The translations under genes and the position numbers were made by a program. Below the pieces are notes generated by a model, which was given only the letters and a program-made list of their open reading frames with translations, was not told where the DNA came from and searched no databases. A stretch of DNA of 64,000 nucleotides from Gammaproteobacteria bacterium (GTDB lineage Bacteria; Pseudomonadota; Gammaproteobacteria; Ga0077536), in assembly GCA_963662545.2 (NCBI GenBank), contig CAXXLL010000002.1:224001-288000 (forward strand), read 5' to 3'. Within the stretch, counting starts at the first letter, position 1. Each line of letters starts with the position of its first letter. Positions 1,040 to 37,585 of this stretch are shown in pieces.

Positions 1040-1049
1040 AGAATTTCAC

Positions 1050-1427
1050 ATGAGCACACTCAAATTCACTACCGCGCATGAGTGGCTGCGTGCCGAGGAC
1101 GATGGCGTCGTCTGCCTAGGCATCAGCGATTACGCCCAGGAGCAACTGGGCGACATCGTCTATGTAGAATTGCCGGACGTTGATGCCCGCTTCGAGAGCG
1201 GTGCAAACCTGGCCGTGATCGAATCCGTCAAGGCCGTCGGCGAGATCAATATACCGTTCGCAGGCACGGTGCGATCGGTAAACGATCGCCTGACCGACGA
1301 ACCCGAAATCGTCAACGCCGACCCCATGGGTGACGGCTGGCTGCTGCGGATCACGGCCGATGATCCCGATGCACTTGATGACTTTATGGAAGAGGCCGCC
1401 TATCACACTTACCTCGAAGGACTTTGA
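1050..1427 (+). CDS. gcvH: Glycine cleavage system H protein
   Basis: [22 protein letters not shown], lipoyl-Lys motif [17 protein letters not shown]. Start placed at ATG 1050. Confidence 0.97.
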
Positions 1428-1464
1428 ACGATTTTCACCCACCTGCGAATCCGCCCGCCGACGG

Positions 1465-4362
1465 ATGACTGAACGATCGCGGCTTGCCGATCTCGAAATG
1501 CGCGGCGATTTCATTCGCCGGCACATCGGCCCGGATCGGGGTCAGATCGCGACGATGGTCGCGGCAGTGGGGCTGGATTCCCTGGAGCAGATCGTCGCGG
1601 CGGCGGTGCCCGACGACATCGTCTCGAACGAGCCGCTGGCGCTCACCGAAACCATTAGCGAGCGCGCGGTCATCACCTATTTGCGCAACATGCGGGCGCG
1701 CAACCGCGTCCTGATCTCCATGATCGGCATGGGTTACTACGGCACCATCATGCCTGCGGTCATCAAGCGCAACGTGCTGGAGAACCCCGGCTGGTATACC
1801 GCCTACACGCCTTACCAGGCCGAGATCAGTCAGGGCCGCCTCGAAGCCCTGTTGAATTACCAGCAGATGGTCATCGACCTGACCGGCATGGAGATAGCGA
1901 ACGCCTCGATGCTTGACGAAGCCACTGCGGCGGCCGAGGCGATGGCCATGGCCCGGCGAGTGTCGAAGACCGCATCGATGCGATTTCTGGTCGATCTGGA
2001 CTGCCATCCGCAGACGATCGCGGTGGTGAAAACGCGTGCACGGTATTTCGGTATCGAGATCGTGGTCGACGAAGCGGTGAGCGCCATCAATGAGGGCGAA
2101 TTTTTCGGTGTGCTCGTGCAGTACCCGGGATCGAGTGGCACTGTCAGCGACTACACCCGCCTCATCGAGACGGCGCACGCCGGCGGTGCGCTCGTCACCG
2201 TGGCTTCTGATCTGCTGGGCCTGGTCTTGCTGAGATCACCGGGCACGATGGGTGCCGACATCGTCGTCGGCAACGCGCAGCGCTTCGGTGTCCCCATGGG
2301 CTACGGCGGACCGCACGCGGCGTTTTACGCGACGCGTGAAAAATTCGTGCGCTCCATGCCGGGACGGGTGATCGGCGTCTCACTCGACAGCGAAGGGCGG
2401 CCGGCGCTGCGCATGGCCTTGCAGACTCGCGAGCAGCATATCCGCCGCGAGAAGGCGACCAGCAACATCTGTACCTCGCAGGTGCTGCTCGCCGTGATCG
2501 CGGGCTTCTACGCGATCTATCACGGACCGAAAGGCCTCGCGCTCATCGCCGGGCGGGTCCATCGCCTCATGCAGATCCTCCATGCGGGTCTCCGCAGACT
2601 CGGCTACGAAGTGCTGACCGAAGTCTATTTCGACACGATCACCGTGCGGGTTCCGCACCGCGCGCGCCATATCGCCGCGAAAGCGCGCGAGGCGGGTATC
2701 AACCTGCGTGTAGTCGACGCGGATCATATCGGTGTCGCGTTCGACGAGACCATCAACCGCGCGGCTCTGCGATCGCTCTGGCGGGTGTTTGCGCGCGAAG
2801 CGGATGACGCGCTCGACCTCATTGCCCTCGACGCCGGCATTGAAGAATGCCTTCCCGCGGCGCTGCGGCGCAGGGGCGAGATCCTGACCCATCCGGTGTT
2901 CGAGCGGTATCACTCGGAGACCGAGATGATGCGCTACATGCGCCGCCTGGCCCGGCGCGACATCGCGCTCGATCGCGCCATGATCCCGCTGGGTTCCTGC
3001 ACCATGAAACTGAACGCCGCGGTCGAAATGCAAGCCCTGTCCTATCGCGAATTCAACAGCCTGCACCCCTTTGCGCCGCTGGATCAGGCGCAGGGCTACC
3101 AGCAGATGTTCGATGAGCTCGAAGGCATGTTGTGTGATCTCACCGGTTTCACCGCCTTCTCGCTGCAGCCAAACGCGGGATCACAAGGGGAGTACACCGG
3201 GCTTCTGGTCGTGCGCAAGTACCACGAAGTCCGTGGCGAGCCGCAGCGCGACGTCTGCCTGATCCCCGCCTCGGCACACGGCACAAATCCCGCCAGCGCG
3301 GTGATGGCCGGGCTGCGCGTGGTGGTCGTTGCCTGCGATGACGAGGGCAACGTCGATGTCAAAGACCTCAAACGCAAGGCCGACGAGTACGCTGAGCGAC
3401 TCGCGGTTTTGATGATCACCTATCCGTCGACCCACGGTGTCTACGAAGCGTCGATCCAGGAAGTCTGCAACATCGTGCATGGGCGCGGGGGCCAGGTCTA
3501 CATGGACGGCGCCAATCTCAACGCATTGGTGGGCGTGTGCCGGCCCGCCGAAATCGGCGCCGACGTCATGCACGTCAACCTGCACAAGACCTTCGCCATT
3601 CCGCACGGCGGCGGCGGTCCCGGCATGGGACCGATCGGCGTGATGCCGCACTTGACGCCGTATCTGCCGGATCATCCGGTGGTCGGCGGGGTCAATCCGG
3701 CGGCGGGCAAGAACGGGACCGTAGGGACAGTGTCGGCCGCGCCCTGGGGCTCTGCCAGCGTCCTCACGATCTCGTGGGCTTACATCGCCATGATGGGGGC
3801 GCAGGGCCTGCGCCGCGCGACGATGGTCGCGATCCTCGCGGCGAATTACATCGCGCGCCGCCTGCAGCCGCATTACCCGGTGCTTTACACCGGCAAGAAC
3901 GGCATGGTCGCCCACGAATGCATCATCGACCTGCGTCCACTCAAGGCCGCCACGGGAGTAACAGTCGACGACATCGCCAAACGCCTCATCGACTACGGCT
4001 TTCACGCCCCGACCATGTCCTTCCCGGTCGCAGACACCCTGATGATCGAACCGACGGAAAGCGAGAACAAGCGCGAGATCGATCGCTTCTGCGACGCCAT
4101 GATCGCCATCCGCGCGGAAATCGAGGCCATAGAAAAAGGCATCGCGGATCGCGAGAACAATCTGCTCAAAAACGCCCCGCACACCCACCGCATGCTGATC
4201 GCGGACGACTGGGACAAGCCCTATACCAAGGCGCAGGCCTTCTTCCCGATGGAGGGCCAGCACGAGGACAAGTACTGGCCGCCAGTCGGGCGGATCGATA
4301 ATGCTTACGGGGATAAGAACCTGTTTTGTAGTTGTCCGCCGATGGAGGCGTTCGCCGATTGA
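1465..4362 (+). CDS. gcvP: Glycine dehydrogenase (decarboxylating), P protein
   Basis: [42 protein letters not shown]-Lys motif [16 protein letters not shown]. Confidence 0.98.
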
Positions 4363-4369
4363 CGAATCA

Positions 4370-4407
4370 TTGACATATTGATGCATCATTAATATGCTTT
4401 GATGCAT
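4370..4407 (+). promoter_or_regulatory. Sigma70-type promoter and operator of vapBC
   Basis: TTGACA (4370-4375), 17 bp spacer, TATGCT (4393-4398). Palindrome TGATGCATCA at 4379-4388; TGATGCAT repeated at 4400-4407. Confidence 0.75.
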
Positions 4408-4651
4408 GCGTACCACCATACGACTCGACGATGAACTCCTGAAGGCAGCTAAACGCCATGCGTCGGAATCCGGCAGCACGGTCACGGCGGTCATCGAGGA
4501 AGCACTACGTGAAAAGCTGTTGCGCAGCCGAAACCAGCCCCAGGCCGCCCGTAAAATTCGCTTGAAAATAACCGGGGAAGGCGGCGTACAACCGGGTGTC
4601 GATCTGGACGACAGCGCAGCGCTGCTGGATGCGATGGAGGGCCGTTATTGA
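4406..4651 (+). CDS. vapB: VapB-family antitoxin (ribbon-helix-helix)
   Basis: N-terminus MRTTIRLDDELLKAAK; 81 aa; 4-nt overlap with the downstream PIN gene. Confidence 0.88.
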   Translation: MRTTIRLDDELLKAAKRHASESGSTVTAVIEEALREKLLRSRNQPQAARKIRLKITGEGGVQPGVDLDDSAALLDAMEGRY

Positions 4652-5076
4652 TCCTGCCGGATGTCAACGTGCTGGTGTACGCGCACCGGCGGGACGCAGA
4701 GAATCATAAGCAATACCGAGCCTGGCTCGAAGAGTCGGTAAACGCCGAAGAATCGTTCGGTCTCGCCGATCTCGTCTTGAGTGGATTCGTGCGCGTCGTC
4801 ACCCACCCCCGCGTGTTCAAGGCGCCGAGCCGCCTCGCCGACGCTCTCGCATTTTGCGAACAATTACGCACGGCCGAGAACTGTGTGGCGGTCAATCCGG
4901 GGCCAAGACACTGGGAAATTTTCGGCCGACTGTGCCGGGCGGCGGATGCCCGCGGTAACCTCGTCCCCGACGCCTATCTCGCGGCGCTCGCGATCGAGGC
5001 CGGATGTGAATGGATCACGACCGACCGGGATTTCGGACGATTCCCGGGCCTACGGTGGCGGCATCCGCTGCGCTAA
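4648..5076 (+). CDS. vapC: VapC-family PIN-domain toxin
   Basis: ILPDVNVLVYA, NLVPDAYLAALAIE and TTDRDFGRFPGL PIN motifs. Confidence 0.92.
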   Translation: MILPDVNVLVYAHRRDAENHKQYRAWLEESVNAEESFGLADLVLSGFVRVVTHPRVFKAPSRLADALAFCEQLRTAENCVAVNPGPRHWEIFGRLCRAADARGNLVPDAYLAALAIEAGCEWITTDRDFGRFPGLRWRHPLR

Positions 5077-5084
5077 AAGTGGAG

Positions 5085-8000
5085 TCAATGGCGCTTCGTC
5101 AAACGCTCGACGTGACCTTGCGCACCCAGCTTCGAAAACGCGTCCTTCGCATGCTGAAGCTCCGAGGCGGCGTCCCAATCCGAGTCGAACGCCCGCGCGA
5201 ATTCGGCGCGGCGCTCGTGCAGGAACGGCTGAACGACGACCGCACCCGTTCGATCGATCAGTGAGTGCGTTTCCTCGAGGGCCGCGAGTGCGCCCTGCCG
5301 ATCACCCAAGCCTGTATGGGCCTGGGCCGAGGCCAGCCAGGGCGGAAGCTCCCAATACAGTTGATGTTCGTGGCAGAACCCGACGGCCTCCAGGGCTATC
5401 TCACGCGCACGTTCCAGATTGCCGAGCGCGACTTCCGCTTGGGCGAGGATCCCCATGGCACTTCCCAGGTGCGCCCGACCGATATTTTCACCCTCCATGA
5501 TTTCGATGGCTTTCTTCGACGCCGCGGCCGAACTTTCGAATTCACACTGATAAAGCAACGCGTTGCCCATCGCCCAATGCGCCATACCCCTCGCGTAACC
5601 CGTTCCCCCAAATTCGGCTTCGGACACAGCCGTATGTGCCAAACTCATCGCCCGCTCAAAATTCCCGTAATAAGCAGACACGATGCTCTCGAGGGATATG
5701 AGTGAACGAGACGAATTCGGGAATCTTGTTGGTCTGAGCATGCGCTTTTCGAATGAATTCGCGAGCGCGCGAGTAGTCTCCAAGGTAACAATTCGTCAAG
5801 CCGACGCCCATTAAAAGCGACCACCGGATACTAAATCCTGTATATCGTGCGCCCCAGTAGGCCTCATCGGGAATTTTCTCGAGTACCTTATTCGCGAGGT
5901 CGATAGCCTCTTGAAAACGGCCGGAAAAGATATAACCGAACACGACCCAGTTCCGCTCGCAGCATTGGAGTTCCTCGTCATTCGTGAGATCGGCCAGGCG
6001 CGCCGCTTCTTCCCCGTAGGTCGCATAATCGTTGGCATAACCCTGCGAGATGCCGCGTAATGCTGAATAAGAGCCGGTCAAAACGGCTTTCAGGGCCGTG
6101 TTTCCCGCACGTTCCGCGAGCGAGATGCCGTCTTCGAAATACGCGCGCGCCTGGTCTTCCGTCGCACCCAGTCGCCACCAGAGGTTACTGATCTGCCCGC
6201 AAGCCTCGGCCCCGATGGTGAAAATCTCCGTCGACGGTTCCAATTCGTCAACAAGTCCCCGGACTTTCTCCCAATGCTCCAATGCCGATGCGGGATCCTT
6301 GACGTTCGCGATTTCCGCGGCCTTCCGATGCCAATTAAGGGCCTGCTCCGGTATGCCCGCGCGTTCCCAGTGGTAGGCAAGCATCGAAGAAAATTCGTCG
6401 ATACGTTGTACTTCCAGTTCTTCTATGGCAGCGGCCACGGCTGCATGCCTGGCAGCGCGCTGCTCCCTCAATTGAGTCTCGTAGGCGACCTCGTGGACGA
6501 GCGGGTGCTTGAACGAATACTCGACGACGGGGTAGAGCGAGGTTTCGTAAACGAAATCCACCGCTTTAAGGCGTTCAAGCGCCGCAGCCAGGTCGGCCGC
6601 GGCGGTGTCGGTGATCTTCTCAATGAGCGGGCGTGAAAAAACTTTCCCGGCAACCGATGCCGCCTGGAGAACGTGCTTCGAGGTTTCATCGAGCCGGTCG
6701 ATGCGCGCGGCGATGATGGCCTGCACGTTTAACGGCACTTCGAGTAGATCGACGTCGCGGCTCAGGCGGTAGGCCCCACGCTTACCTTCGAGCTGCCCGG
6801 TTTCGATCAAGGTATTGATCACTTCCTCGGTATACAGAGGGTTGCCGCCGGTCCAGTGCATGATCTTTTCAGTCAATCGAGTGACGGAGGCATCGTCGCC
6901 CAGCAGGGTTTCTACCATTTCCTGCAGCGCCTCCGGCCCCAGCGGAATCAGCGGCAATTGCTGGTAATGGGCTCTTCCGTTCCAGGCTGCCTGGTATTCG
7001 GGCCTGAAGTTCACGAGGACGAGGGCATGGCTGTTCTCGGCGGCCTCGACCAGCTGTGCCACGAACGCGTCGCTCCAGCTGTCGACCCAGTGCAGATCGT
7101 CGATGAATGTAACGGAGGCCATGCCGCGCTCGCTTCGCGCACGCACGAGCTTGTGCAGCAGGTCGAACAACTGGCGCTGCCGGGCGTCGGCGTCGAGTTG
7201 CGGGGCGGGACGGTCGGGATCGTCGACGCCGAGGAAATCGAACAGCACCGGCATTCCCTCATGCAGAGTCGGGTCGAGCAGGACCAGTGCGCCGGCAATC
7301 TTCTGGCGTGCCTGCCCGGCGGAATCCTGCTCGGAGATATCGAAGTAATTGCGGAACAATTCGAGGATCGGAATGAACGGTATCGTCTTGCCGTGCGCTG
7401 GGCAGTGCGCCTCGTAGACCGGAACCCCCTGCACGCGGCAGCGTTCGGCGAACTCGAAACACAAGCGGCTCTTGCCGAGCCCCGGCTCGCCGACCACGCC
7501 GACTACCTGCCCGTGCCCGGCTTTCACCCGCTCGAGCGCCGTTTCCAGGATCCGCATTTCGTCCTCCCGGCCAACGAATTGTGTCAATCCCCGGGCGCGG
7601 GATATGTCCAGCCGAGAGCGTGCCGTCGTCGTCCCGTCGAGATCAAAGACCGCCAATGCTTCTTCAGCGTCGGATAAGTTCGACCTACCCAGATCCGACA
7701 GTCGAAAAAAACCCTCTACCAGGCGCGCCGTGTGTTCGCTGACGTACACGCGGCCGGATTCGGCGATCTGCTCCAGACGCTGGGCGACGCCCACCGTGTG
7801 TCCTTGTGCGGTATAGTCCATGCGCAGATCGTCGCCAATCTTGCCGACCACGACTTCGCCCGAGTTGATCCCGATTCGCACGCCGAAATCCAGCCCGCGC
7901 TCCAAGCGCAGTTCGATCGCGTAGCGCCGCAGATCTTCCCGCATCTGCAAGGCCGCATAACACGCCCGCTGCGCGTGGTCTTCGTGCGCGATCGGCGCGC

Positions 8001-8433
8001 CGAACAGCGCCATAGCGCCGTCACCGGTATATTGATTGACGGTGCCCTCGAAACGGTGCACACCTTCAGTCAAGATCGAAAAAAAGCGCTCCAGGATACG
8101 GTGCCAGTCTTCGGGGTCCAGGCGGGCGGCGAGATTCATTGAGCCCTTTACGTCGGCGAAGAGTACGGTTACCTGTTTGCGCTCGCCTTCGAGCGCCGAG
8201 CGGGAATTCAAGATCTTGTCGACGAGGTGCTTCGGCGTGTAATCGGCGATCGCCCGGGTCGGCAAGGGTTCAGTCTTCGACGCTGTAGTGGATGCCCCGC
8301 ACTTCGAGCAAAATTTCGCGCCGGGTTTGAGTTCGGCGCCGCAGCTTGCGCAGTTTGCCATCAGCGCGGCGCCGCACTCCGAACAGAAAACGTCGTCGGA
8401 TCCGTTTGCATGTTGGCAAGCGGGGCAGTTCAT
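5085..8433 (-). pseudogene. Zn-ribbon / class III cyclase / STAND-like NTPase / TPR-like protein, paralogue 1 (frameshift near 5694)
   Basis: CxxC pairs, VTVLFADVKGS, QYTGDG, Walker A GEPGLGKS, FIDDLHW. The C-terminus continues in ORF 5085-5783. Removing one base from GGG 5693-5695 gives 1115 aa, close to the paralogues. Confidence 0.88.
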
Positions 8434-8452
8434 TTTTGCATGCCTGCACCTA

Positions 8453-11400
8453 TCAACCGATCAGCCGGGCCATCCGCTCCGCGTTCCCGGGCGCGCCGAT
8501 CTCCAGAAACAAATCATGTGCTTTCTGCAACTCGACCTCCGGCGACCAGTCACACTTAAAGGCCTGTGCGAATTCCGCGCGGCATTCATGCAGGAAGGGT
8601 TCGAAAGTAGACGCGCCCGTCTCTCGCAGGATGCCCGTAACTTCGTCGATCAGTTCTCGCGCGGCGGCCTGGCCACCTGCCTGAATATGAACGCGTGCCA
8701 TGGCGATCCACGGCTGGAGGGACATTCTGAAATTGTGCTCGCGGCAGTGTGCCAGAATCTCTTCTCCCACGTCCCGCGCTTTATCGATGGCGCCGCTGTT
8801 CAGCAGTGCTTCAACCAGAAACGGATCAGCCGTGGCGCGAAGTAATCCGTATGCGCGGTTGTCCAGAGAAATCTTCCGCCCCCTCTCGAGGTATTCAATC
8901 GCCGCCTCGAAATCTCCATCGATAAACGCGGTGACCCCGGCGCCGAGATCCGCCGCGACCGGTATTACACCGGATGGCGATTTTTCGGCGGTCTCAAACA
9001 GCAAATGAACGAAACGGCGCGCGGTAGTCTGATCGCCGGCATAAGCTGCGTTCGTTAATTCCCAGTAATCGGCGTACACCTTGCCATCGGGAAAAAGGCT
9101 CTGCTGCATTTGCTCGCGCGCCTTTTCATATTGCGGCCCCGCTTCGGCCAGATGCCCGACGACGGACAGTCGCACGGCGTCGGCCAGTGCGATCAGCGCC
9201 GACGGACTGATCGCGGTTGCTGATGTGCCAAAGCGCGTATCATCAGGCAGTTTTTCACGGAGCGCCTGAATGACATCCGCGGCTTCGTGCAGGTTGCCGT
9301 TTGCGTTATGTGCCCAGGGCAGGTAACTCTCCATACTGCATTGCAACTCGAAATCGTCGAGTTCCTTCGCAATATTCGACGCTTCAGTCGTATAAGTCAG
9401 ATAATCGTCGGCATTGGCTAGCCCTACCCCCCGCACGACGCCGTAACCGAGGTAGAGTCCTGCCATAAGTGCCTTGTTCCCCGCGGCCTCGGCCAAGCGT
9501 TTACCGTCTTCGAATAGCTGTTGGGCTTCGGCATCGGTCGAACTCAAGCGCCAGCCGATCATCAGTATGCGCGAGCAGGCAACAGCCCCGGTCGACAGCG
9601 TTGCCGCGTCCGCTGGCAGCTCCTCCGCCAGTTCGCGCACGCGATGCCAATGACGCATCGATGCTGGTGCGTCATGCCCTTCCGTTATTGTGGCCGCGCG
9701 TTGATGCCATTCGAGCGCCTTCGCTAGATCACCGGCAGCGTCCCAGTGGTAAGCGAGCAGTGATGCCTGTTTATCGAGGGCGCTTTGTTCCCCGGCCTCT
9801 ATCGCTTGAGCAACCGCTGCGTGAACCTCCGCGCGGCGCGTCTCGAGTTGTCCGTCGTAGGCGACTTCTTGGGTCAACGGGTGTTTGAAGCCGTATTCGG
9901 CAATCGGATAGAGCGCGCGCTCGTGCACGAAATCACCGTTCTTGAGGCGGTTGATTGCCATTGATAGTTCGTCCGCACTCAATCCGGCAATAGCATTCAA
10001 TAGCGGCCCAGAAAACTCTTTGCCGATCACCGAAGCCGCCTGCAACACGCGCTTGGCGGTGTCCGGCAGCCGGTCGATACGTGCAGCCAGCACCGAGCGC
10101 ACGTTAACGGGTACCTGCAATTCGTCGACCGGCGTCACGCGGCGGTAGGCACCCGGCGCCCCTTCCAGATGCCCACTTTCCGCCAGCATCTGCACGACTT
10201 CTTCGGTAAAGAAAGGATTGCCGCTGGTCCATTGCATGATGCGATCGACGAGTTCCGAAGTTGACGGATCCGTGCCGAGCAGACTTTCGACGAGTTCGCG
10301 CAGATCGGCGGCTTCCAGCGGTACCAATGGGAGTTGCTGGTAATAGGTCTTATTGGTCCACTCGGCCTGGTATTCGGGCCGGAAATTCAACAGAAATAGA
10401 TTGCGGCTGGCCGCAGTGGCTTCCACGAATTGGGCCACGAAGGCGTCACTGCCCTGATCGATCCAGTGCAGATCGTCGATGAAGGCCACGGTCGAGATCC
10501 CCTGCTCGTTGTGCACGCGATAGAATCTATGCATGAGTTCGAAAAGCGCGTGTTGCCGCGCATCGGCATCGAGCTCGGGCGCCGGCCGATCCGGATCGCC
10601 CACCCCCATGAAATCGAACAGCACCGGCAAGCTGTCGATCAGGCTTTCGTCGAGCAGGAGCAGCGCGCCGGCGATCTTCTGCCGCGTCGCGGCCGCGCCA
10701 TCTTGCGACGTGACGCCGAAGTAGCTGCGGTACAGTTCGAGGATCGGGATGTAGGGAATGTTCTTGCCGTGCGCCGGGCAGTGGCCCTCGATCACTTCCA
10801 CGCCATCTGCGCGACACTGCTGGACGAATTCATAGCACAGCCGGCTCTTGCCGAGCCCCGGCTCCCCGACAACACCGACGACCTGTCCATGCCCGTTCCT
10901 GGCCCGCGCCAGCGCGGCGTTCAGAATGTTCATCTCATCGTTGCGGCCGACGAAACGGGTGAGACCGCGTGAGCGGGATACATCGAGACGCGTGCGCGAT
11001 GCCCCCACACCCTCCAGTTCGAATACCCCAACGGGTTCATTCGCGCCGCTCAGTTTCGACACGCCGAGGTCCCGCAGCTCGAAATAACCGTCGACGAGCC
11101 GTTGCGTATGCTCGCTCAGGTAAATTCGATCGGTCGCGGCAAGCTGTTCGATGCGCTGGGCGAGTCCTACGCTGTGTCCCTGGGCGGTGTAGTCCATCCT
11201 GAGGTCGTCACCGATCTTGCCGACGACCACGTCGCCGGAATTGAGTCCGAGCCGCACCCCGAAGTTGAGCCCGCGCTCGATGCGCAGTTGATCCGCGTAG
11301 GCCGTCAACTTCGCGCGCGCGTCGAGCGCCGCATAGCACGCGCGTTGCGCATGGTCTTCATGCGCGATGGGCGCACCGAACAGCGCCATGATCCCGTCGC

Positions 11401-11809
11401 CGGTGTATTGATTGACCGTGCCTTCGTAGCGGTGCACTGCATCGGTCAGAATCGTGAAGAAACGGTCGAGAATGTAGTGCCACGCCTCCGGATCGAGTTG
11501 CTCCGCCAACTCCATCGATCCCTTTACATCGGCGAACATGACCGTCACCTGCTTGCGCTCTCCTTCGAGCGCCGATCGCGTGGTCAGGATCTTTTCGGCA
11601 AGGTGTTTCGGCGTGTAGTCGCCGATGCGACGAGGCGGCGGCTTTACCGATTCACCATCAGCCGTCCCAGTGCCGCACTTCGGGCAAAATTTGGCAGTCG
11701 CTTTAAGTTCGGCGCCGCAATTCGCGCATGACACTGCGAGCTTCGCGCCACATTCTTCGCAGAAGAGAGCGTCTTGATCGTTTGCATGCTGGCAGGTAGG
11801 GCAGTTCAT
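8453..11809 (-). CDS. Zn-ribbon / class III cyclase / STAND-like NTPase / TPR-like protein, paralogue 2
   Basis: 1118 aa; MNCPTCQHAN, FADVKGS, QYTGDG, GEPGLGKS, FIDDLHW, GNPFFTEE, FKHPL. Confidence 0.93.
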   Translation of the reverse strand: MNCPTCQHANDQDALFCEECGAKLAVSCANCGAELKATAKFCPKCGTGTADGESVKPPPRRIGDYTPKHLAEKILTTRSALEGERKQVTVMFADVKGSMELAEQLDPEAWHYILDRFFTILTDAVHRYEGTVNQYTGDGIMALFGAPIAHEDHAQRACYAALDARAKLTAYADQLRIERGLNFGVRLGLNSGDVVVGKIGDDLRMDYTAQGHSVGLAQRIEQLAATDRIYLSEHTQRLVDGYFELRDLGVSKLSGANEPVGVFELEGVGASRTRLDVSRSRGLTRFVGRNDEMNILNAALARARNGHGQVVGVVGEPGLGKSRLCYEFVQQCRADGVEVIEGHCPAHGKNIPYIPILELYRSYFGVTSQDGAAATRQKIAGALLLLDESLIDSLPVLFDFMGVGDPDRPAPELDADARQHALFELMHRFYRVHNEQGISTVAFIDDLHWIDQGSDAFVAQFVEATAASRNLFLLNFRPEYQAEWTNKTYYQQLPLVPLEAADLRELVESLLGTDPSTSELVDRIMQWTSGNPFFTEEVVQMLAESGHLEGAPGAYRRVTPVDELQVPVNVRSVLAARIDRLPDTAKRVLQAASVIGKEFSGPLLNAIAGLSADELSMAINRLKNGDFVHERALYPIAEYGFKHPLTQEVAYDGQLETRRAEVHAAVAQAIEAGEQSALDKQASLLAYHWDAAGDLAKALEWHQRAATITEGHDAPASMRHWHRVRELAEELPADAATLSTGAVACSRILMIGWRLSSTDAEAQQLFEDGKRLAEAAGNKALMAGLYLGYGVVRGVGLANADDYLTYTTEASNIAKELDDFELQCSMESYLPWAHNANGNLHEAADVIQALREKLPDDTRFGTSATAISPSALIALADAVRLSVVGHLAEAGPQYEKAREQMQQSLFPDGKVYADYWELTNAAYAGDQTTARRFVHLLFETAEKSPSGVIPVAADLGAGVTAFIDGDFEAAIEYLERGRKISLDNRAYGLLRATADPFLVEALLNSGAIDKARDVGEEILAHCREHNFRMSLQPWIAMARVHIQAGGQAAARELIDEVTGILRETGASTFEPFLHECRAEFAQAFKCDWSPEVELQKAHDLFLEIGAPGNAERMARLIG

Positions 11810-11887
11810 CGTTCGTCAGGTCCGCACAGAGATCCAGGGTGATTATCGATCAACCACCCCGCCAGCTACCGAGTGATTACGTCGCGC

Positions 11888-11944
11888 TTGCACAAGAGTA
11901 CCTCAACCATACATAATGTCGTTTGATGTCATTGACATTAAACG
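11888..11944 (+). promoter_or_regulatory. Putative promoter and inverted-repeat operator of relBE
   Basis: TTGCAC (11888), 18 bp spacer, CATAAT (11912). Inverted repeat CGTTTGATGTCA-T-TGACATTAAACG at 11920-11944 with one mismatch. Confidence 0.65.
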
Positions 11945-11952
11945 GGGTTATT

Positions 11953-12174
11953 ATGACTCAAATTACCGCGCGCCTGCCCGACGAACTTGTCCAGGCCTTG
12001 GATCAAACGGCGCGCAGCCTTAATCGCTCCCGGGCCGAAGTGATCCGGCAAGCCGTGGAACGTTACCTGGAAGATTTCGATGACCTGAGTGTCGCAATCG
12101 AGCGATTACAGGATCCTAATGATCCTGTTCTCGACTGGGATGAGGTCAAGCGTGATCTACTCGGTCAGAATTAA
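11953..12174 (+). CDS. RHH/CopG antitoxin (RelB-like)
   Basis: MTQITARLPDEL...RSRAEVIRQAVERYLEDFDD...LDWDEVK; overlaps the downstream toxin. Confidence 0.87.
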   Translation: MTQITARLPDELVQALDQTARSLNRSRAEVIRQAVERYLEDFDDLSVAIERLQDPNDPVLDWDEVKRDLLGQN

Positions 12175-12424
12175 GGGTAGTGCAGCGAAAGAGCTTGCCG
12201 GGATCGAAAAAGCACCTCGGGCGCAGATCATCGAATCGATCGATGCGCTGGCTGAGAATCCCCACAGGGGCAGTGCGCTGAAAGGTGACCTGAGCGGGCT
12301 GCGCCGAATACGCGTTGGTAACTATCGAGTGATCTACGAGATTATCAAGGTTGAAGTCCTTGTCCTCGTAGTCCAGGTGCGACACCGGCGAGATGTCTAT
12401 CGCAAGAGAGGCGCGACTCGCTGA
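12152..12424 (+). CDS. relE: RelE/ParE-family toxin
   Basis: YSVRIKGSAAKEL, LAENP, LRRIRVGNYRVIYEI, VRHRRDVY. GTG start at 12152. Confidence 0.9.
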   Translation: MIYSVRIKGSAAKELAGIEKAPRAQIIESIDALAENPHRGSALKGDLSGLRRIRVGNYRVIYEIIKVEVLVLVVQVRHRRDVYRKRGATR

Positions 12425-12574
12425 GATTGACCTTCAGCGCCGAGCTCGGTGTGCATCGCGCAGTTCGTCGTCCGCCGACCACTCGCATTTGAATGACCCG
12501 GCGAACGTTGGGCGGCATTCGTAGAGCAATAGTTGGTAGACGTTACTGCTATGCTGGCAGGCGGGGCAGTCCAT
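12397..12574 (-). pseudogene. Internally deleted relic of a fourth cyclase-NTPase paralogue
   Basis: Hand translation: MDCPACQHS (family N-terminus) joined to YQLLLYECRPTFAGSFKCEWSADDELRDAH, then in a shifted frame TELGAEGQSQRVAPLLR* (family C-terminus). Confidence 0.82.
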
Positions 12575-12577
12575 TGG

Positions 12578-15500
12578 CTAATCGAGTGCCTTGGCGAGGC
12601 GTTCTACGTGCGTAGTAAGCCCCATCTCTGTGCACAGGCGATGTGCGGTACGCAACTCCTCCTCGGCCGACCACTTACCACCGAAAGCCTTTGCAAATGC
12701 GGCGCGTTGTTCATGGATAAACGGCTGAAAATAGCGACCCTTCGTTTGTGTGATCAGCGTTTGCAGTTCGTCGAGCGCCGCGAGTGCCCCGGATTCATCG
12801 CCCAGCACGATGCGGGCGCGCGCGAGCGAGACCCATGGTTGCATATCATGAATCGAGCGTTTCGACCGACAGAAATCCACGCCGTTTTCTGCCCATCGCA
12901 GGCCGTCTTCAATTTTTCCTTGTTCGATGCAGGCCTCACTTAACGCGCCAGTCGCGGCGCCGCGGTAGTAACGCATTTGCATTGCATCACCGATTTGCAC
13001 CGCGGTTTCGAGAAAATCGTGCGCTCTATCCGTCTCCCACATGTTTAGGCAGGTAATACCCATGCACAAATTCGCAAGCGTACCGGCAAACCCGGCTTCG
13101 CTGTGCCCGGCGTCCTCGTAAACTGAGCGTGCTCGGTCGAGCGCCGTATCCCGATTGCCATCGAGGATCGCGAAACGGCACGCATGATAGCGGCCCAGCC
13201 ACATCATCTCGGGAGACATCTCGGTCGTTGGAAATCGCTCGAACTCACTGAGCAAGCGCTTCGCTTCTTCAAATCGTCCGAGTGTCCAGAGACTACCGCA
13301 CGCCGCGACCGTTAGGCCCGCGCGTATGCTATTACCCATTATCCTTACGCCGAATTCGCCATCATCGGGGCTATTGGCGAGTGCGTATTCTTTGACATTT
13401 AGGGCATCCTCGAACCGGCCTGCCGCGAAGTAGGCCCAGATGAGATAAAAACGCATGCCGAGCCGCAGTTCGGTTTCACCGATCTGATCTGCGAGACGGA
13501 CGGCTTCCTCGGAGTGCTTAACGTACTTCTGCGAATCCCCGATCGTTACGCCTTGCGCCACCGAATATCCACCCTGCAGGTAGACAAGCGTGGTCAGGTC
13601 ACCAGAGCGCTCGGCGAAAGCCTTGCCGTCCTCAAAATTGCGTTCGATATCTTCTTCCTTCCCACCGAGGCGCCAACCCAAGGTTAGGATCTGTGAGCAT
13701 GCCTGAGCACCAAGCATGAGGTTCTCTTTCTCGGGCGGCAGTTCGTCGATGAACTCACGCACGCGACGCCAGTGGTGGATCGAACCGGTTGCATCTTTGC
13801 GATAGGACCAGACTGCTGCACGCCGGTGCCATTCAACGGCTTGTGCGTGATCGCCCGCGACCTCCCAGTGATAAGCGAGCAGCGGCGAGCGCTCATCGAG
13901 ATTGTCGGGCTCGAAGGCCTCGAACGCCTGCGCAACGGCCCCGTGGACCTGTGCACGATGGCTCTGAAGTTGCGAGTTGTACGCAACTTCCTGCGTCAGT
14001 GGGTGTTTAAAAGCGCACTCGACGATCGGGTATAGCGAGCGCTCATAGATAAAGTCGCCGTCCTTCAGAATCTCGAGGGCAATACCGAATTCACTGCTTG
14101 CCAGCTCCGATACGGTCTCGAGTAGCGGCAGGGGAAACTCCTTACCGATCACCGCTGCCGTTTGCAGCAGCTGCTTGCTCGGATCGGACAGGCGATCGAT
14201 GCGTGCAGCGAGTACGGCCCGCACGTTGACAGGCACGGCCAGTTCTCGAACGTCCATAACCAGATGATAGGCACCGGGACTACCCTCGAGCTGCCCGGTC
14301 TCGACCAGTTCCTGAATGACTTCTTCGGTGTAGAACGGATTGCCGGTCGTCCACTGTACGATGCGGTCCGACAACTTGTTCAGCGATGGATCGCCGCCGA
14401 GGATACTGCCGACCAGTTCCCTGATGACCTCGTTGCCCAGAGGCGCAAGCGGCAATTGATGATAATGGGCGCGTCGCATCCAGTCGGCCTGGTATTCGGG
14501 GCGGAAATTTAGCAGCAACAGATTTCGACTGTGCTCTATGGTGGACGCAATTATTTGCGTCAGAAATGCATCACTACCCGGGTCGATCCAGTGCAGGTCG
14601 TCGATAAAAAGAAGCATCGTGATGCCGCGCTCCGCCTGGGCACGGTAGAGCGTATGCAGCATGGAGACGAGCTGCCGTTGCCGGGCGTCGGCGTCGAGCT
14701 CAAGTGCCGGCATATCGGGATCGCCGACACCCATGAATTCGAACAGCACCGGCAGTCCATCGCGCAGACTCTCGTCAAGCAACAGCATCGCGCCGGCAAT
14801 TTTTCGCCTGGCTTCCGTTTCATCGTCCCGGGCCTTGATGCCGAAATAGCTTCGGTACAACGCGAGAATGGGAACGAAGGGAATGTTTTTACCGTGTGCC
14901 GGACAGTGCGCTTCAAGGATCATGAGACCATTTGCACGGCAGCGTTTTACAAATTCCAGGCACAGCCGGCTCTTGCCGAGCCCGGCCTCGCCTACGACCC
15001 CGACCACTTGGCCGTTGCCGGCGCTGGCCTGGGCCAGTGCCGCATCCAGTGTCTGCATTTCGTCATGGCGTCCGACGAAGCGGGTCAGGCCGCGCGATTG
15101 CGACACCTCGATGCGCGTTCTCGATGTCCCGACATCTTCGAGCTCGAAGATACCGGTCGCACTGCCGGTTTTGGATAAATTCGAGGCGCCCAGTGAACGC
15201 AGGCGGAAATAGCCTTCAACGAGGTGTTGTGTGCTTTCGCTTAGATAAACGCGTCCGGGTTCTGCGAGTTGTTCGATGCGTTGCGCAAGGCCGACGGTAT
15301 GCCCCTGGGCCGTGTAATCCATGCGCAGGTCGTCGCCGATCTTGCCTACCACGACCTCGCCGGAGTTGAGACCGATGCGGAGGGCAAAACTCACCCCTCG
15401 CTCGATGCGTAACTGGTCGGCGTAAACGCCGAGCTTCTGCCGGATGTCCAGGGCGGCGTAACAGGCCCGCTGGGCATGATCCTCGTGGGCGATCGGCGCG

Positions 15501-15937
15501 CCGAAGAGTGCCATGATGCCGTCGCCCGTATACTGGTTAACCGTCCCTTCAAATCGATGGACGCCTTCGGTGAGGATGGCGAAGAAGCGATCGAGGATCT
15601 CATGCCATTCTTCCGCGTCGAGCTGGCGCGCCAGTTCCATCGAACCCTTTACATCGGCGAACATAACGGTGAGGTCTTTGCGTTCGCCTTCGAGCGCGGC
15701 TCGAGAGGTCAGGATCTTGTCAGCGAGGTGTTTGGGTGTGTAGTCGGCGATCGATCGTGGTGCTGATATTTCATTTTTGGGGCCCGCTGAAACGTCAATC
15801 CCGCACCCGGGACAGAAACGCGCATTAGGTGACAGTGCTTCGCCACAACTCGCGCAGTTTCGCTCGAGCTTTGCTCCGCAGGATTCGCAGAACCGCGCGC
15901 TGTCGTTATTCGCGTGTTGGCAGGATGGGCAGTTCAT
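12578..15937 (-). CDS. Zn-ribbon / class III cyclase / STAND-like NTPase / TPR-like protein, paralogue 3
   Basis: 1119 aa with the same motif order (GEAGLGKS, FIDDLHW, GNPFYTEE). Confidence 0.93.
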   Translation of the reverse strand: MNCPSCQHANNDSARFCESCGAKLERNCASCGEALSPNARFCPGCGIDVSAGPKNEISAPRSIADYTPKHLADKILTSRAALEGERKDLTVMFADVKGSMELARQLDAEEWHEILDRFFAILTEGVHRFEGTVNQYTGDGIMALFGAPIAHEDHAQRACYAALDIRQKLGVYADQLRIERGVSFALRIGLNSGEVVVGKIGDDLRMDYTAQGHTVGLAQRIEQLAEPGRVYLSESTQHLVEGYFRLRSLGASNLSKTGSATGIFELEDVGTSRTRIEVSQSRGLTRFVGRHDEMQTLDAALAQASAGNGQVVGVVGEAGLGKSRLCLEFVKRCRANGLMILEAHCPAHGKNIPFVPILALYRSYFGIKARDDETEARRKIAGAMLLLDESLRDGLPVLFEFMGVGDPDMPALELDADARQRQLVSMLHTLYRAQAERGITMLLFIDDLHWIDPGSDAFLTQIIASTIEHSRNLLLLNFRPEYQADWMRRAHYHQLPLAPLGNEVIRELVGSILGGDPSLNKLSDRIVQWTTGNPFYTEEVIQELVETGQLEGSPGAYHLVMDVRELAVPVNVRAVLAARIDRLSDPSKQLLQTAAVIGKEFPLPLLETVSELASSEFGIALEILKDGDFIYERSLYPIVECAFKHPLTQEVAYNSQLQSHRAQVHGAVAQAFEAFEPDNLDERSPLLAYHWEVAGDHAQAVEWHRRAAVWSYRKDATGSIHHWRRVREFIDELPPEKENLMLGAQACSQILTLGWRLGGKEEDIERNFEDGKAFAERSGDLTTLVYLQGGYSVAQGVTIGDSQKYVKHSEEAVRLADQIGETELRLGMRFYLIWAYFAAGRFEDALNVKEYALANSPDDGEFGVRIMGNSIRAGLTVAACGSLWTLGRFEEAKRLLSEFERFPTTEMSPEMMWLGRYHACRFAILDGNRDTALDRARSVYEDAGHSEAGFAGTLANLCMGITCLNMWETDRAHDFLETAVQIGDAMQMRYYRGAATGALSEACIEQGKIEDGLRWAENGVDFCRSKRSIHDMQPWVSLARARIVLGDESGALAALDELQTLITQTKGRYFQPFIHEQRAAFAKAFGGKWSAEEELRTAHRLCTEMGLTTHVERLAKALD

Positions 15938-15972
15938 GGTTCGTAAAGGTGATTCTTCCCCAAAACGTATGA

Positions 15973-16161
15973 TCAGGCTGTGTACTCTACCTCCGCCTGA
16001 ATACGTTCTCCCATTTCTTTCTCGACAATCGTCAGGGCTCGGTGGTTCCTACGGCCTCCGGTGAGCTTGTGCAGGCCGATGCTCTTAAATGGTCTGCGGT
16101 CGTGCAGCGAAGTTGCGGCGTTCAAGGCGGCCTGAAGATCTTCGGCAGCTTCATAGAACGC
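15973..16161 (-). pseudogene. HigB-like toxin fragment fused to a HigA-like C-terminus (TA relic)
   Basis: Hand translation AAEDLQAALNAATSLHDRRPFKSIGLHKLTGGRRNHRALTI resembles the HigB core. VEKEMGERIQAEVEYTA* resembles a HigA tail. No start codon. Confidence 0.65.
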
Positions 16162-16163
16162 GT

Positions 16164-17570
16164 TTACGGTGCGGCTCCCGACCCCATGCGCATATCCTTC
16201 ATCCGCCCGTCACTTTGCAACAAACCGAGTACCGCATGATCAAGATCCAATCGCTCGCCGCGCCAGTTCGCTACACACGTCTCCGCGGAAACGTGAATAC
16301 CTCTCGCCCGTACTAATTGGGCAAGGTCTTCGGTCGCGGGCGTCGGTGCGGGTACCTCTGGGAGCAGCATACCGTCGGGACGCAGGAATAATAGCTTGCC
16401 GTCGTCGCGCCGTTCGAGCGTAAAGCCGCCTTCGTGTATGAGTTGGTGATGATGCCGGCACAGCAGTACGAGGTTCTGCACACTGGTCTCGCCGCCGTCC
16501 GCCCAATGCCTTATATGGTGCGCATCGACGCTGCGGTGGCGGATACACCCCGGAAACCGGCAGCCGCGGTCGCGCGCTTCGAGCGCCCGGCGAATAGCGG
16601 ACGGTACGGCACGGGTCTTGCGGCCGATGGCGAGCGGTTCACCATCGGCGTCCTCTTCGATCTGGACGATCCCGGCGTCGCAGGCGAGCCGCCGGGCGGT
16701 CTCCGCGGCCAGGGCCGGGCCATGCTCGATTTCGCAGCGCGTCGTGCGGTCTTCTGCGCGTAAGGTGTCCCGATCGACGTATACGACGATTTGATGGCGG
16801 TCGGCTTGTTTGGATGTAAGCGCGCCATGCGCCAGGAACTGCTCGCCCAGGTGACTGAGCGCATCGGCACGGCGTGTGGCGGCCGGATGCGCTGCACCGG
16901 GTGACGTTCCCGCGGGAACGTCGGCGTCGACGAGCGGTTCTTTGATCTGCCCGGTGGGCACGCCGTCCGCCACGAGATCGTCCGCCGCCGCGGCGAGGGC
17001 CTTAAGCAGCATCGCGCCAGTTTCGGTCGGCAGGCGCGCCTGGATGACCAGCATGCCGTCGTCGTCGTAATACCAGTCCAGGTGGCGCGCTTGGTGTGCA
17101 CCGTTCGCCTTCTCGGTTTCTTCGATTCGCTGCACCTGCCGATAGGCGCGCACCGTCTGCTCGACATGCATCGCCGTGCCGTGGCGCGCGATCATCAATA
17201 AAGTGTCCTCGTTCTCGGGTGTCGCCACGCGGGTCATCGCCCGCACCTTGGAGTAGCTCACGACGCCTGACGCAAACGCCGCGCTGATCTGGGGTAACGA
17301 TTCCAGTGCCCGCGCGACGCGCACCTTTTCACGCGCCGCGCCGAGTGCGATCCCGCATTTCCAGTTGAGCCAGTGGGCGCAGGAGTGTAGGCCGTGCTTG
17401 CCCCAGACTTCGCGGCGGTCGAACTCCGCGATCAGCATGAGCAACTGCCAGGTGGCGGCGGCGATGTTGGCGGCGAGGGTGGTGATCGAGTCTTCCAGGG
17501 CGTCGTCGGGGGATCGCTCAGAATGGAACTCGGGAGGGGTATGGCAAGGCGTGATAGCGAGGTCTTCCAT
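16164..17570 (-). CDS. DUF222 + HNH endonuclease (13E12/REP-like)
   Basis: SCAHWLNW, AREKVRVARALESLP, ARRLACDA, RDRGCRFPGC, DAHHIRHWADGGETSVQNLVLLCRHHH. GGAG lies upstream of ATG 17570. Confidence 0.9.
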   Translation of the reverse strand: MEDLAITPCHTPPEFHSERSPDDALEDSITTLAANIAAATWQLLMLIAEFDRREVWGKHGLHSCAHWLNWKCGIALGAAREKVRVARALESLPQISAAFASGVVSYSKVRAMTRVATPENEDTLLMIARHGTAMHVEQTVRAYRQVQRIEETEKANGAHQARHLDWYYDDDGMLVIQARLPTETGAMLLKALAAAADDLVADGVPTGQIKEPLVDADVPAGTSPGAAHPAATRRADALSHLGEQFLAHGALTSKQADRHQIVVYVDRDTLRAEDRTTRCEIEHGPALAAETARRLACDAGIVQIEEDADGEPLAIGRKTRAVPSAIRRALEARDRGCRFPGCIRHRSVDAHHIRHWADGGETSVQNLVLLCRHHHQLIHEGGFTLERRDDGKLLFLRPDGMLLPEVPAPTPATEDLAQLVRARGIHVSAETCVANWRGERLDLDHAVLGLLQSDGRMKDMRMGSGAAP

Positions 17571-17593
17571 GGCGTATTTCGCTCCAGCAAATA

Positions 17594-17613
17594 TACTGTA
17601 ATTATATCCAGTA
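17594..17613. promoter_or_regulatory. LexA (SOS) box overlapping the -10 element of the HNH gene
   Basis: TACTGTAATTATATCCAGTA fits CTG-N10-CAG with TA flanks. Minus-strand TATAAT at 17601-17606 lies inside it. Confidence 0.8.
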
Positions 17614-17678
17614 TTTGCTCGCACAGCCAGCATTTTTTCCCTTCGCGTCGTGGAAATTTTTACGGCGACCGGAAGGGC

Positions 17679-18797: not shown

Positions 18798-18872
18798 AAT
18801 TTTCAAACCCGATCGGTTCTGCTAAATAGTTGTACGAATGAAAGTGTTTGATGACATTTTAAGCTCGGGTAC

Positions 18873-19058
18873 TCACTGCAGTGTCGTCTTCGTTACACCG
18901 CAGCGCTCACACCGTTTGATCGTGACCAGCCGACCCTGCTTCACATCGAACTGCTTCTTTTGATCAATTTCCCATTTATGAAAACCGCTTTTACAGAGCG
19001 TCTTCCCCTTCGACTTCTTTTTTCGCCGTGCCTTCTTGATAGAGACGATTTCGCCCAT
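18873..19058 (-). CDS. Small basic hypothetical protein with C/H/CxxC, possible Zn-binding
   Basis: 61 aa; LCKSGFHKW...RCERCG; 9 nt downstream of the SDR gene on the same strand. Confidence 0.7.
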   Translation of the reverse strand: MGEIVSIKKARRKKKSKGKTLCKSGFHKWEIDQKKQFDVKQGRLVTIKRCERCGVTKTTLQ

Positions 19059-19067
19059 AAGCTTCGC

Positions 19068-31583: not shown

Positions 31584-31670
31584 GCGTAACGAAAGGTGCT
31601 GCGACAAGTGCAGCGCCATGAAAGTCCCACCTTGAACCGGTCCGGCGCCCTCAGGCGCCGCGCCAAACCT

Positions 31671-33737: not shown

Positions 33738-33738
33738 G

Positions 33739-37300: not shown

Positions 37301-37585
37301 TCGATCCGGTTCAGGAGGCGATCTCGAGCGCGCTCGAGCCGTATGCGGATGTAACGAGCGGCCTTAGTGACATCAGTGGCTTGATTGGGGACCCGGCTAC
37401 GATCATGTCCGATCTCGCTGAAGAAATGCTCTCGGATGCGATTAATATCACACCGTTCTGATTTGATTGATTTAGGTGAGCTGAACGCCGTTCTGATGGT
37501 TTTAAAGAGGCCTTAGAGCCGCCGGCACCCGGTCCGGCATCAGAGCGAAAACTTCACCCAGCCTGAAGGGGAGGACTCGACTGGC

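Follow-up and report, generated by a model that had tools for sequence, protein, structure and literature searches.

Do genes that stand side by side in a bacterial chromosome necessarily belong to one system? This question is raised by a stretch of 64,000 nucleotides (nt), hereafter the window, from a gammaproteobacterial genome (G000, the source genome, of 5.58 Mb and ~60% G+C; the window is C2:224001-288000). It contains an array of three large paralogous cyclase genes, which we call P1, P2 and P3, among toxin-antitoxin (TA) modules and next to an HNH endonuclease gene that carries a LexA box. The initial annotation of this DNA, made from the sequence, had described the array as an expanding and contracting repertoire of NLR-like sensors, headed by the SOS-boxed HNH gene, punctuated by three different TA modules and possibly devoted to defence or stress signalling, and had ranked it as a candidate undescribed system. 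We consider it reasonably probable that P1-P3 are ligand-gated receptor-cyclases of a widespread and known kind, the sensors of which diverged after duplication and the product of which would feed a cyclic nucleotide monophosphate (cNMP) network that includes MMPL-type exporters, the TA and HNH genes being independent of them.

The architecture of the receptor-cyclases

Each paralogue is composed, according to Pfam, of a double zinc ribbon, a class III cyclase domain, a STAND ATPase of the AAA_16/MalT-like type and a TPR C-terminus. The cyclase domain is matched by PF00211 with E-values of 1.4e-20 to 2.5e-23 and the ATPase by AAA_16 with E-values of 1e-22 to 1e-25, the TPR matches being weak. 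In P2, the double zinc ribbon occupies residues 1-50, the cyclase domain residues 81-265 and the AAA_16/STAND nucleotide-binding domain (NBD) residues 285-475; they are followed by a helical and a winged-helix domain (HD-WHD, ~476-700) and by the TPR sensor (~700-1118). An AlphaFold2 model of P2 was built on 58 family sequences (mean pLDDT 90, pTM 0.81), and its cyclase domain superposes on CyaB, CyaC and Cya2 with TMt values of 0.83-0.88 and Z ~26, in agreement with a class III cyclase fold (for CyaB, 3r5g: TMt 0.88, Z 26.2, root-mean-square deviation 2.6). The best whole-chain Foldseek match of the model is the STAND-TPR protein 6mfv_A (E 9.6e-12 over 809 columns), and Apaf-1 (5juy_A) is also matched (E 2.6e-8). 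The region 656-1117 is all-helical in the model and would form a C-terminal superhelical sensor, since residues 771-1118 align with MalT domain III (1hz4) over 335 of 366 residues with a Z of 25.4. When its sequence was searched separately, the NTPase-TPR part had no relative in the PDB at E<=1 except two chance-level rows.

The motifs of the ATPase lead to the same assignment. Walker A and B, the GxP motif and the winged-helix His are conserved across the 58 family sequences, in which G318, G320, K321, D451, R477, N531 and P532 are invariant and D446 and H643 nearly so. With these NBD and HD/WHD motifs and the modelled TPR superhelix, P1-P3 are predicted to belong to the MalT-like STAND NTPases, and the NLR layout that had been proposed for them holds.

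By analogy with MalT and other STAND proteins, the binding of a ligand to the C-terminal TPR sensor would relieve autoinhibition, and the STAND module would then swap ADP for ATP and oligomerise. The N-terminal cyclase domains would thereby be brought together as dimers, in which the active sites of class III cyclases form, and cAMP or cGMP would be made in a pocket that is non-canonical. The signal could be read by the many cNMP-binding proteins of the genome, in this lineage notably by MMPL/RND-type exporters that have a fused cyclic nucleotide-binding (CNB) domain and a LolA-like partner.

Is the cyclase domain an enzyme at all? In an alignment to CyaB and the 58 family members, 4 of the 6 canonical catalytic residues are kept. 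Both metal-binding Asp and the transition-state Arg are invariant (58/58 each), as is the Walker A Lys (58/58), and the second base-specificity position is a Thr in 53/58. The domain thus appears conserved as an enzyme would be, with an uncertain product. It could also be supposed, from the non-canonical residues found at 2 of the 6 positions in most members, that it is a nucleotide-binding or dimerisation module devoid of cyclase activity, and that signalling goes through partners bound to the zinc ribbon or the TPR. We hold this to be very improbable, for the invariant Asp and Arg residues speak against it, as do the genomic linkage to cNMP-binding proteins and the activity reported for a mycobacterial cyclase with a comparable substitution. 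In the accessible part of a preprint (10.1101/2024.03.06.583649), Rv0386, Rv1358 and Rv2488c are described as an N-terminal class III cyclase followed by a MalT-type P-loop ATPase, TPR and LuxR, and Rv0386, which has a Gln-Asn pair, is reported to be an active adenylyl and guanylyl cyclase.

The Rv0386-type cyclases, as that part of the preprint presents them, are the closest studied kin of P1-P3 when architecture and residues are compared, as they share the cyclase-MalT-TPR order and the Gln at the Lys position. P1-P3 differ from them by the absence of the C-terminal LuxR helix-turn-helix (HTH), by the additional N-terminal double zinc ribbon, and by the second specificity residue, which is Thr in their family and not Asn. 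With MalT and the STAND-TPR protein (1hz4, 6mfv), the P2 model has the NBD-HD-WHD-TPR fold in common, whereas the output of P1-P3 is a cyclase domain and not a DNA-binding domain. A last relative is the TOMM kinase/cyclase fusion TIGR03903. The core of P1-P3 aligns to positions ~278-1242 of the 1267 of this model with E-values of 1e-82 to 1e-94, but at 275-315 bits for a cut-off of 705.75; model positions 1-277 are unmatched, the zinc ribbon stands in place of the N-terminal kinase, and no genes for ribosomally synthesised and post-translationally modified peptides were seen nearby.

One output module with three sensors

The identity between P1, P2 and P3 is 75-79% in the cyclase homology domain and drops along the protein: the NBD has 61-67%, the HD-WHD 56-61% and the TPR 29-36%. 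At the nucleotide level, similarity is of ~68% over the first 2 kb and cannot be detected further on. The three proteins have a common output module, and, because their sensors are very different, they probably respond to different ligands. In a tree made from the N-terminal 720-790 residues, P2 is paired with its orthologue from G001, a genome of the same genus (SH-aLRT 100), P3 falls outside this pair (88), and P1 together with two other sequences completes the clade of P2 and P3 with a support of 99. Since P2 pairs with the G001 gene and P3 lies outside, the duplications are old and predate the split of the two species. P2 and its orthologue are 77% identical overall and 68-71% identical in the TPR part; neighbouring housekeeping genes have 75-88% identity between these genomes, which makes the rate of evolution of the P2 orthologue an ordinary one.

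Some of the copies are no longer intact. The first frame of P1 runs from 8433 to 5656 and encodes 925 amino acids (aa) before a premature stop, and the remaining ~190 residues of the C-terminus are encoded in another frame, within 5085-5783(-), the shift being located at ~5680-5730. The initial annotation did not mention this frameshift. It is real, because short-read contigs from three studies, which cover 4086-16581 with 0-6 differing letters, show the same sequence without any gap at this place. In one strain (run X8), 2 nt are missing at 15894, around codon 15 of P3; in the window and in two of the three long contigs, P3 is intact and keeps all its catalytic and NTPase motifs. These contigs also tell something about the organism. 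DNA nearly identical to 5000-9000 was found in runs of 7 studies, including sponge metagenomes. In a comparison of 4000-19500 with four runs, each from a different study, three runs had long contigs with no more than 6 differing letters in 12.5 kb, so that the strain is widespread among samples of this kind.

A fourth copy has collapsed, as the initial annotation had recognised. Its ORF (open reading frame) starts 3 nt beyond the P3 stop and joins the first 8 codons of the family (MxCPxCQH) to a match of the last ~35 residues of P2/P3, with ~3.2 kb lost internally. It also carries the fourth copy of a 24-mer found at the starts of these genes (repeat D9, at 8410, 11786, 12551 and 15914). It has a 76% nucleotide match to a cyclase-tail relic at C2:77082-77181. 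This relic belongs to the remains of another cyclase-STAND C-terminus at C2:77034-77443 (L006 7032-7447), 37-50% identical to the P2 tail at the amino acid level, with a phage-type integrase and an ISL3 transposase a few kb away. Old tandem duplications gave rise to an array that is now in decay, with one copy collapsed and another frameshifted.

A flexible site in related genomes

The array lies in an intergenic site that has gcvP on one side, as the end of gcvT-gcvH-gcvP (17-4362, upstream of the array site), and an SDR gene (19068-19835) on the other. In G001, gcvP abuts the SDR gene, so that ~14.7 kb (4363-19067) are absent; of the three paralogues only P2 has an orthologue in this genome, and it is located elsewhere. 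In G002, which is of the same genus (~90% nucleotide identity), gcvP, of which the first ~145 nt are present, is joined at nucleotide 1475 to a 150-nt piece of the P1 tail, followed by the 5' end of the HNH gene, the LexA box and a monooxygenase gene (L010 8860-9340). G002 may once have had the array and since have deleted it, or this junction may be an artefact of a fragmented assembly. In the same genome (completeness 95%), gcvP was not found elsewhere with the query that was used, which would correspond to a double deletion removing gcvP or, again, to an assembly artefact. Across 41 relatives, 10 have matches at E<=1e-50, with 1-8 matches per genome in these 10 and 0 to 8 overall.

The collapsed copy, the P1 frameshift, the P3 deletion, the empty site of G001, the collapsed site of G002 and the range of 0-8 matches support the earlier proposal that the repertoire expands and contracts, over long time scales, and show that the site between gcvP and the SDR gene is flexible, with insertions and losses. 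The same facts could be read in a more extreme way, namely that the array is mostly a decaying relic in which only P2 is under selection, and that the juxtaposition with TA and HNH genes is meaningless, in a hotspot of insertions and deletions. The reduction of the G002 locus to fragments, the further relic at C2:77034-77443 and the fact that G001 has an orthologue of P2 only would fit this reading, as would the breaks in P1 and P3 and the collapsed copy. We nevertheless find it rather unlikely: P3 is intact in the window and in most long contigs with its motifs kept, P1 is broken at one point only, its motifs being otherwise conserved, and tandem pairs have been retained for long in other Nevskiales. 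Such pairs of cyclase-STAND genes are found in two Nevskiales (L039 9359-19582; L089 9995-20289), in both of them upstream of an MMPL-CNB gene. Their first genes and their second genes fall in separate, parallel clades, the mark of an old retained pair that might act as a heteromer.

Beyond this genus, the relatives of P1-P3 are numerous. A pattern scan with one genome per species gave at least 595 relatives, and the loci studied here are the best 79. They come from Binatia, Myxococcota, Methylomirabilota/Rokubacteria, Actinomycetota, Chloroflexota and Gammaproteobacteria (Nevskiales). Matches were also found on 773 plasmid or chromid records, often several on each, where they are annotated as "adenylate/guanylate cyclase domain-containing protein" or "AAA family ATPase". 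An architecture so routinely annotated is not an undescribed system, all the more so as a 2026 preprint on Pucsar, in the part available, already predicts that certain cyclase-STAND fusions act in immunity.

Candidate readers of the cyclic nucleotide

If P1-P3 make a cyclic nucleotide, which proteins could read it? In the source genome, 17 ORFs with a CNB domain were counted along with 22 cyclase matches. In G001, the P2 orthologue comes directly after an operon that encodes a LolA-like protein, a small ORF and a transporter of the MMPL/sterol-sensing type with a CNB domain at its C-terminus. In a further relative, G012, the MMPL-CNB gene that a clade-mate precedes is of a different subfamily and has 27-29% identity to the G001 type. 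The window itself contains an MMPL-CNB gene of this second, G012-like type, which is divergent from a distant cyclase-AAA_16 paralogue and is followed by a PilZ-domain gene (58148-58885). In L039, L069 and L089, all from Nevskiales, one or two cyclase-STAND genes are followed at 1-4 kb by an MMPL-CNB gene, with a LolA-like gene in between in L039 and L069. The linkage thus involves two subfamilies and several gene orders. In L021 (Binatia), it is the gene of a Crp-type regulator (CNB and HTH) that comes after the cyclase. Overall, a CNB gene is present in 5/79 loci, and no CNB partner is conserved outside the gammaproteobacterial lineage. All 10 relatives with a cyclase-STAND match carry a type-B MMPL-CNB orthologue, which is present in 14/41.

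The MMPL-CNB protein of the window is thus a candidate reader of the product of the cyclases. Several clusters of the ESM Atlas (Pseudomonadota, Binatota, Myxococcota) consist of MMPL-CNB fusions, and a literature search on MMPL proteins with a cyclic nucleotide-binding domain gave, among the matches listed, no description of the fusion. The phosphate-binding cassette of the CNB domains linked to MMPL reads G-E-x-G/A...R-T-A in the window protein, in the G001 locus (L001 12670-15018) and in the G012 locus (L002 1155-3905). R-T-A is typical of cGMP-selective CNB domains, and the messenger may, judging by this motif, be cGMP rather than cAMP.

The partners found, whether MMPL-CNB or Crp, point to ordinary signalling with diversified sensors. 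A bolder proposal would be that the paralogues are pattern-recognition receptors, that their cNMP gates MMPL/RND exporters with LolA-like partners for the export of envelope lipids or lipoproteins under immune or other stress, and that the array is a repertoire of such receptors; we regard it as doubtful.

Immune sensors or ordinary receptors

The defence role first suggested for the array made a simple prediction, which is that homologues should be found among TA and defence genes. ORFs of the 79 loci were called with a simple picker based on third-position G+C (GC3), which splits or misses some genes, and small ORFs (<=160 aa) were compared with Pfam. TA domains were found in 7/149 small ORFs within 3 kb of a cyclase gene and in 6/141 at 3-10 kb, so that there is no enrichment; the far set holds 141 of 166 small ORFs, and 9 of those left out lay inside the cyclase match of L053 and L058, where no cyclase gene had been called. 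The near TA domains are spread over five loci (MazE and PIN in L014, PIN in L025, Phd in L049, HicB in L063, RHH and ParE in L073) and the far ones over three; in L025, a PIN/Phd pair stands between two tandem cyclase genes. Of 213 larger ORFs within 2 kb, PADLOC covered 119, taken from L013-L066 with the exception of two ORFs longer than 2600 aa and of part of the second neighbours. It gave 2 clear defence genes, a Type I methyltransferase and AbiEi; the other matches were weak and mostly to generic domains (oxidoreductase, HTH, subtilase). This comparison being one of near and far flanks, a modest enrichment of TA or defence genes relative to the genome-wide density may still exist. Because TA genes are not enriched near the homologues, we reject a coupling between the two, and the TA pairs of the array are probably independent selfish occupants of a flexible site. 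The tests that had been proposed for a defence role thus came out against it at the family level.

Could P1-P3 nevertheless be NLR-like immune sensors? The TPR would then recognise a phage or invader protein and the cNMP would switch on a CNB effector, as in a Pycsar system with a built-in STAND module; this role could fall to the MMPL-CNB protein, with growth arrest or a change of the envelope as the outcome. A STAND layout with highly diverged sensors, a variable copy number at a variable locus, and the TA modules that adjoin homologues in L014, L025 and L073 are all compatible with this. The likeness to Avs and bNACHT proteins goes as far as the effector-NTPase-repeat layout, the divergence of the sensors and the patchy distribution, but the effector of P1-P3 is a signalling enzyme, not a nuclease, protease or NADase, and they have no defence-island context. 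On the genes of the window, PADLOC returned PycC models only, with a best E of 1.3e-23. These matches span the generic cyclase fold only, and no Avs or NACHT model of PADLOC was matched at E<=0.01 (a near-miss was EruA of NCBIfam, with E 7e-4 over 26 residues).

The comparison with Pycsar and Pucsar is instructive in this respect. The class III cyclase fold is shared, and in both cases the cyclase is paired with a protein that has a cNMP-binding domain. In the available part of the 2026 preprint, PycC is mostly stand-alone and sits beside CNB-TIR or small transmembrane (TM) effectors, whereas the cyclase of P1-P3 is fused to a STAND-TPR module, and the CNB proteins linked to it are only MMPL or Crp proteins, often not adjacent. 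At 4406-17613, no CNB effector with TIR or TM segments adjoins the cyclase genes, and the family's partners are of other kinds, namely an RND-type transporter with 12 TM segments and a regulator of the Crp type. The same part of the preprint places cNMP cyclases fused to NACHT/AP-ATPase STANDs in a predicted "immune clade 1", which would favour an immune role; it names these fusions, and not the MalT-like type. The ordinary rate of evolution of the P2 orthologue, the scarcity of defence genes around the family, the remainder of the window, which is not a defence island, and the 9 matching phage records, all of them to a stand-alone cyclase domain and none to the full architecture, speak against it as well. 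All in all, we judge that an immune function is unlikely, if still deserving of attention, and nothing that we found marks the array as a new anti-phage system.

Our preference for ligand-gated receptor-cyclases that act in ordinary signalling has to be weighed against several observations, which count against it. First, the pocket is unusual: the equivalent of the substrate Lys is a Gln in 47/58 family members, and that of the transition-state Asn is Gly in 36/58, His in 15/58 and Asn in 7/58; because these two residues are replaced, the activity or the product could differ from cAMP. Second, the link to a reader is loose. The MMPL-CNB adjacency is limited to this lineage, with 3/79 public loci and 3/10 relatives that have both genes; no CNB gene lies next to P1-P3 (none in 4406-17613), the nearest MMPL-CNB gene being ~41 kb away, and the co-occurrence across relatives is confounded by kinship and genome size. 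Third, some features would look alike in a family of immune sensors, in which a patchy copy number and sensor divergence are also expected. The family tree mixes phyla, which is usual for STAND proteins, and paralogue clusters are seen at 8/79 loci, as immune sensors would show too. Finally, parts of the array seem to be under weak selection, to judge from the frameshifts of P1 and, in one strain, of P3.

The HNH gene and its LexA box

The claim that an SOS-boxed HNH gene heads the array had two parts, of which only the first stands. The LexA box matches the familiar CTGT-N8-ACAG consensus at 17/20 positions and overlaps a TATAAT-like hexamer. In the source genome, the promoter of lexA itself contains boxes of this same type, and only 3 sites reach at least 15/20, one of them before this HNH gene and another before a second copy of it. 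With a promoter box of the organism's own type, the HNH gene is a predicted member of the SOS regulon. Its longest ORF starts at 17633 and encloses the box, which is why the ATG at 17570 is likely to be the true start.

The second copy of the DUF222-HNH gene (C3:756149-757534) has 90% amino acid identity to the first and its own LexA box at C3:756106. The repeat shared by the two (window 16185-17629, C3:756090-757534; ~1.45 kb, 88% nucleotide identity) is limited to the box and the gene. Because this second copy lies far from cyclase genes (~245 kb from the nearest cyclase-domain match on its contig) with a box of its own, the HNH gene does not head the array, and it is a self-contained, duplicated two-copy unit that is independent of it. 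In G002, the LexA box has been kept despite the deletion of the HNH gene. Mycobacterial DUF222/REP13E12 genes also bear SOS boxes. The confinement of the repeat to box and gene suggests that the unit is a mobile or duplicating selfish gene under SOS control.

Layout of the array and other features of the window

The gene order given in the initial annotation agrees with the ORFs and with the Pfam and NCBIfam profiles (Table 1). From the LexA box onwards, the minus strand carries the HNH gene, P3, the collapsed paralogue, P2 and P1; the plus strand carries the two TA pairs, that of RelB/ParE being located between P2 and P3. A convergent arrangement occurs twice, P2 and P1 running against vapBC (8 nt separate the 3' ends of vapC and P1) and P3 and the collapsed remnant against relB/parE. 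Two of the three TA modules that had been listed are supported by profiles, and each has the layout of a type II module, in which a small antitoxin gene overlaps or abuts a toxin gene of a known family, the overlaps being of 4 nt in vapBC and 23 nt in relB/parE. The third, the "HigBA-like relic", was a resemblance seen by eye: except for DUF6148 (0.1), Pfam has no match to it at E<=1, and it has no PADLOC or NCBIfam match and no paralogue in the source genome or in the loci.

Table 1. Position and support of the features of the array and of the distal cyclase and transporter genes (coordinates of the window)
Feature	Position	Strand	Evidence
vapB, VapB-type RHH antitoxin, 81 aa	4406-4651	+	VapB_antitoxin 3.4e-7, RHH_1 1.8e-6 (Pfam)
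vapC, PIN toxin, 142 aa	4648-5076	+	Pfam PIN 1.9e-15; TIGR00028 1.3e-47, 161.6 bits for a cut-off of 73.6
P1, frameshifted	5085-8433	-	Alignment of the tail to the P2 and P3 C-termini
P2, intact, 1118 aa	8453-11809	-	Pfam, AlphaFold2 model, fold matches, G001 orthologue
RelB-like RHH antitoxin, 73 aa	11953-12174	+	NF048017 1.1e-13 (at cut-off); RHH_1 5.4e-11
ParE/RelE-family toxin, 90 aa, GTG start	12152-12424	+	ParE_toxin 1.4e-13; TIGR02385 32.5 bits for a cut-off of 27.9
Collapsed paralogue, 46-codon ORF	12434-12574	-	Sequence and start-repeat copy
P3, intact in the window, 1119 aa	12578-15937	-	Pfam and alignment
Short open frame between HNH and P3 ("HigBA-like relic")	15973-16176	-	Unverified
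DUF222-HNH endonuclease gene, 468 aa from the ATG at 17570	16164-17570	-	DUF222 8e-25, HNH 1.6e-6 (Pfam)
LexA (SOS) box TACTGTAATTATATCCAGTA, gammaproteobacterial CTGT-N8-ACAG type	17594-17613	.	Consensus match
MMPL/sterol-sensing RND-type transporter with C-terminal cNMP-binding domain, 918 aa	58882-61638	-	MMPL 3.4e-26, cNMP_binding 1.7e-14 (Pfam)
Distant cyclase and AAA_16 paralogue, 30% identical to P2, running past the end of the window	61755-64000	+	

A promoter-like site precedes vapB at 4370-4398 (10/12 positions) and a palindrome lies ahead of the relB-like gene at 11919-11945; a promoter and terminator scan of the stretch yielded no more than shuffled sequences did. At the boundaries of the island, neither terminal direct repeats nor a tRNA nor an Rfam family was found. 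According to Pfam, the remaining content of the window consists of metabolism, a Tad pilus and insertion sequence (IS) elements.

Several further observations were made along the way. Of the 119 neighbours within 2 kb of cyclase-STAND genes, 5 encode a luciferase-like or "C3a156" oxidoreductase (L019, L027, L028, L031, and L042, which is G012), and the oxidoreductase gene of the window (17679-18806) would adjoin P3 but for the HNH insertion. This proximity, seen in several phyla, may be due to chance, such enzymes being very numerous in these genomes. Another luciferase-like monooxygenase, at 21846-22904, is split into ORFs of 87 and 228 aa (both Bac_luciferase); because its counterpart in G002 is a single ORF of 352 aa (L010 14001-15059), the gene is probably broken in the source genome. 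A Mutator-family transposase is in two ORFs at 35950-37197, and the stretch 53093-57532, near the Tad pilus cluster (31596-47684), contains three DDE_Tnp_1/DUF772 transposase copies side by side, of which one is truncated.

What the array means for receptor-cyclases

The array illustrates how receptor-cyclases, a large class that has been little studied, evolve through duplication, divergence of the sensors, collapse and loss in a flexible site, and it reminds us that a system may have TA modules and an SOS-controlled HNH gene as neighbours that form no part of it. We know of no member of the cyclase-STAND-TPR architecture, the mycobacterial ones included, for which a ligand has been described; for this reason, three sensors attached to one output module make a convenient system for the discovery of ligands. 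The repeated linkage of cyclase-STAND and MMPL-CNB genes in this gammaproteobacterial lineage is a new lead. If it is real, both orphan families would gain a testable function, in which a cytoplasmic sensor of ligands would be connected to an envelope exporter through a cNMP. Were the exporter moreover gated by such receptors, it would provide the NLR-like proteins of bacteria with a new output arm, and it would be the first RND transporter gated by a cNMP.

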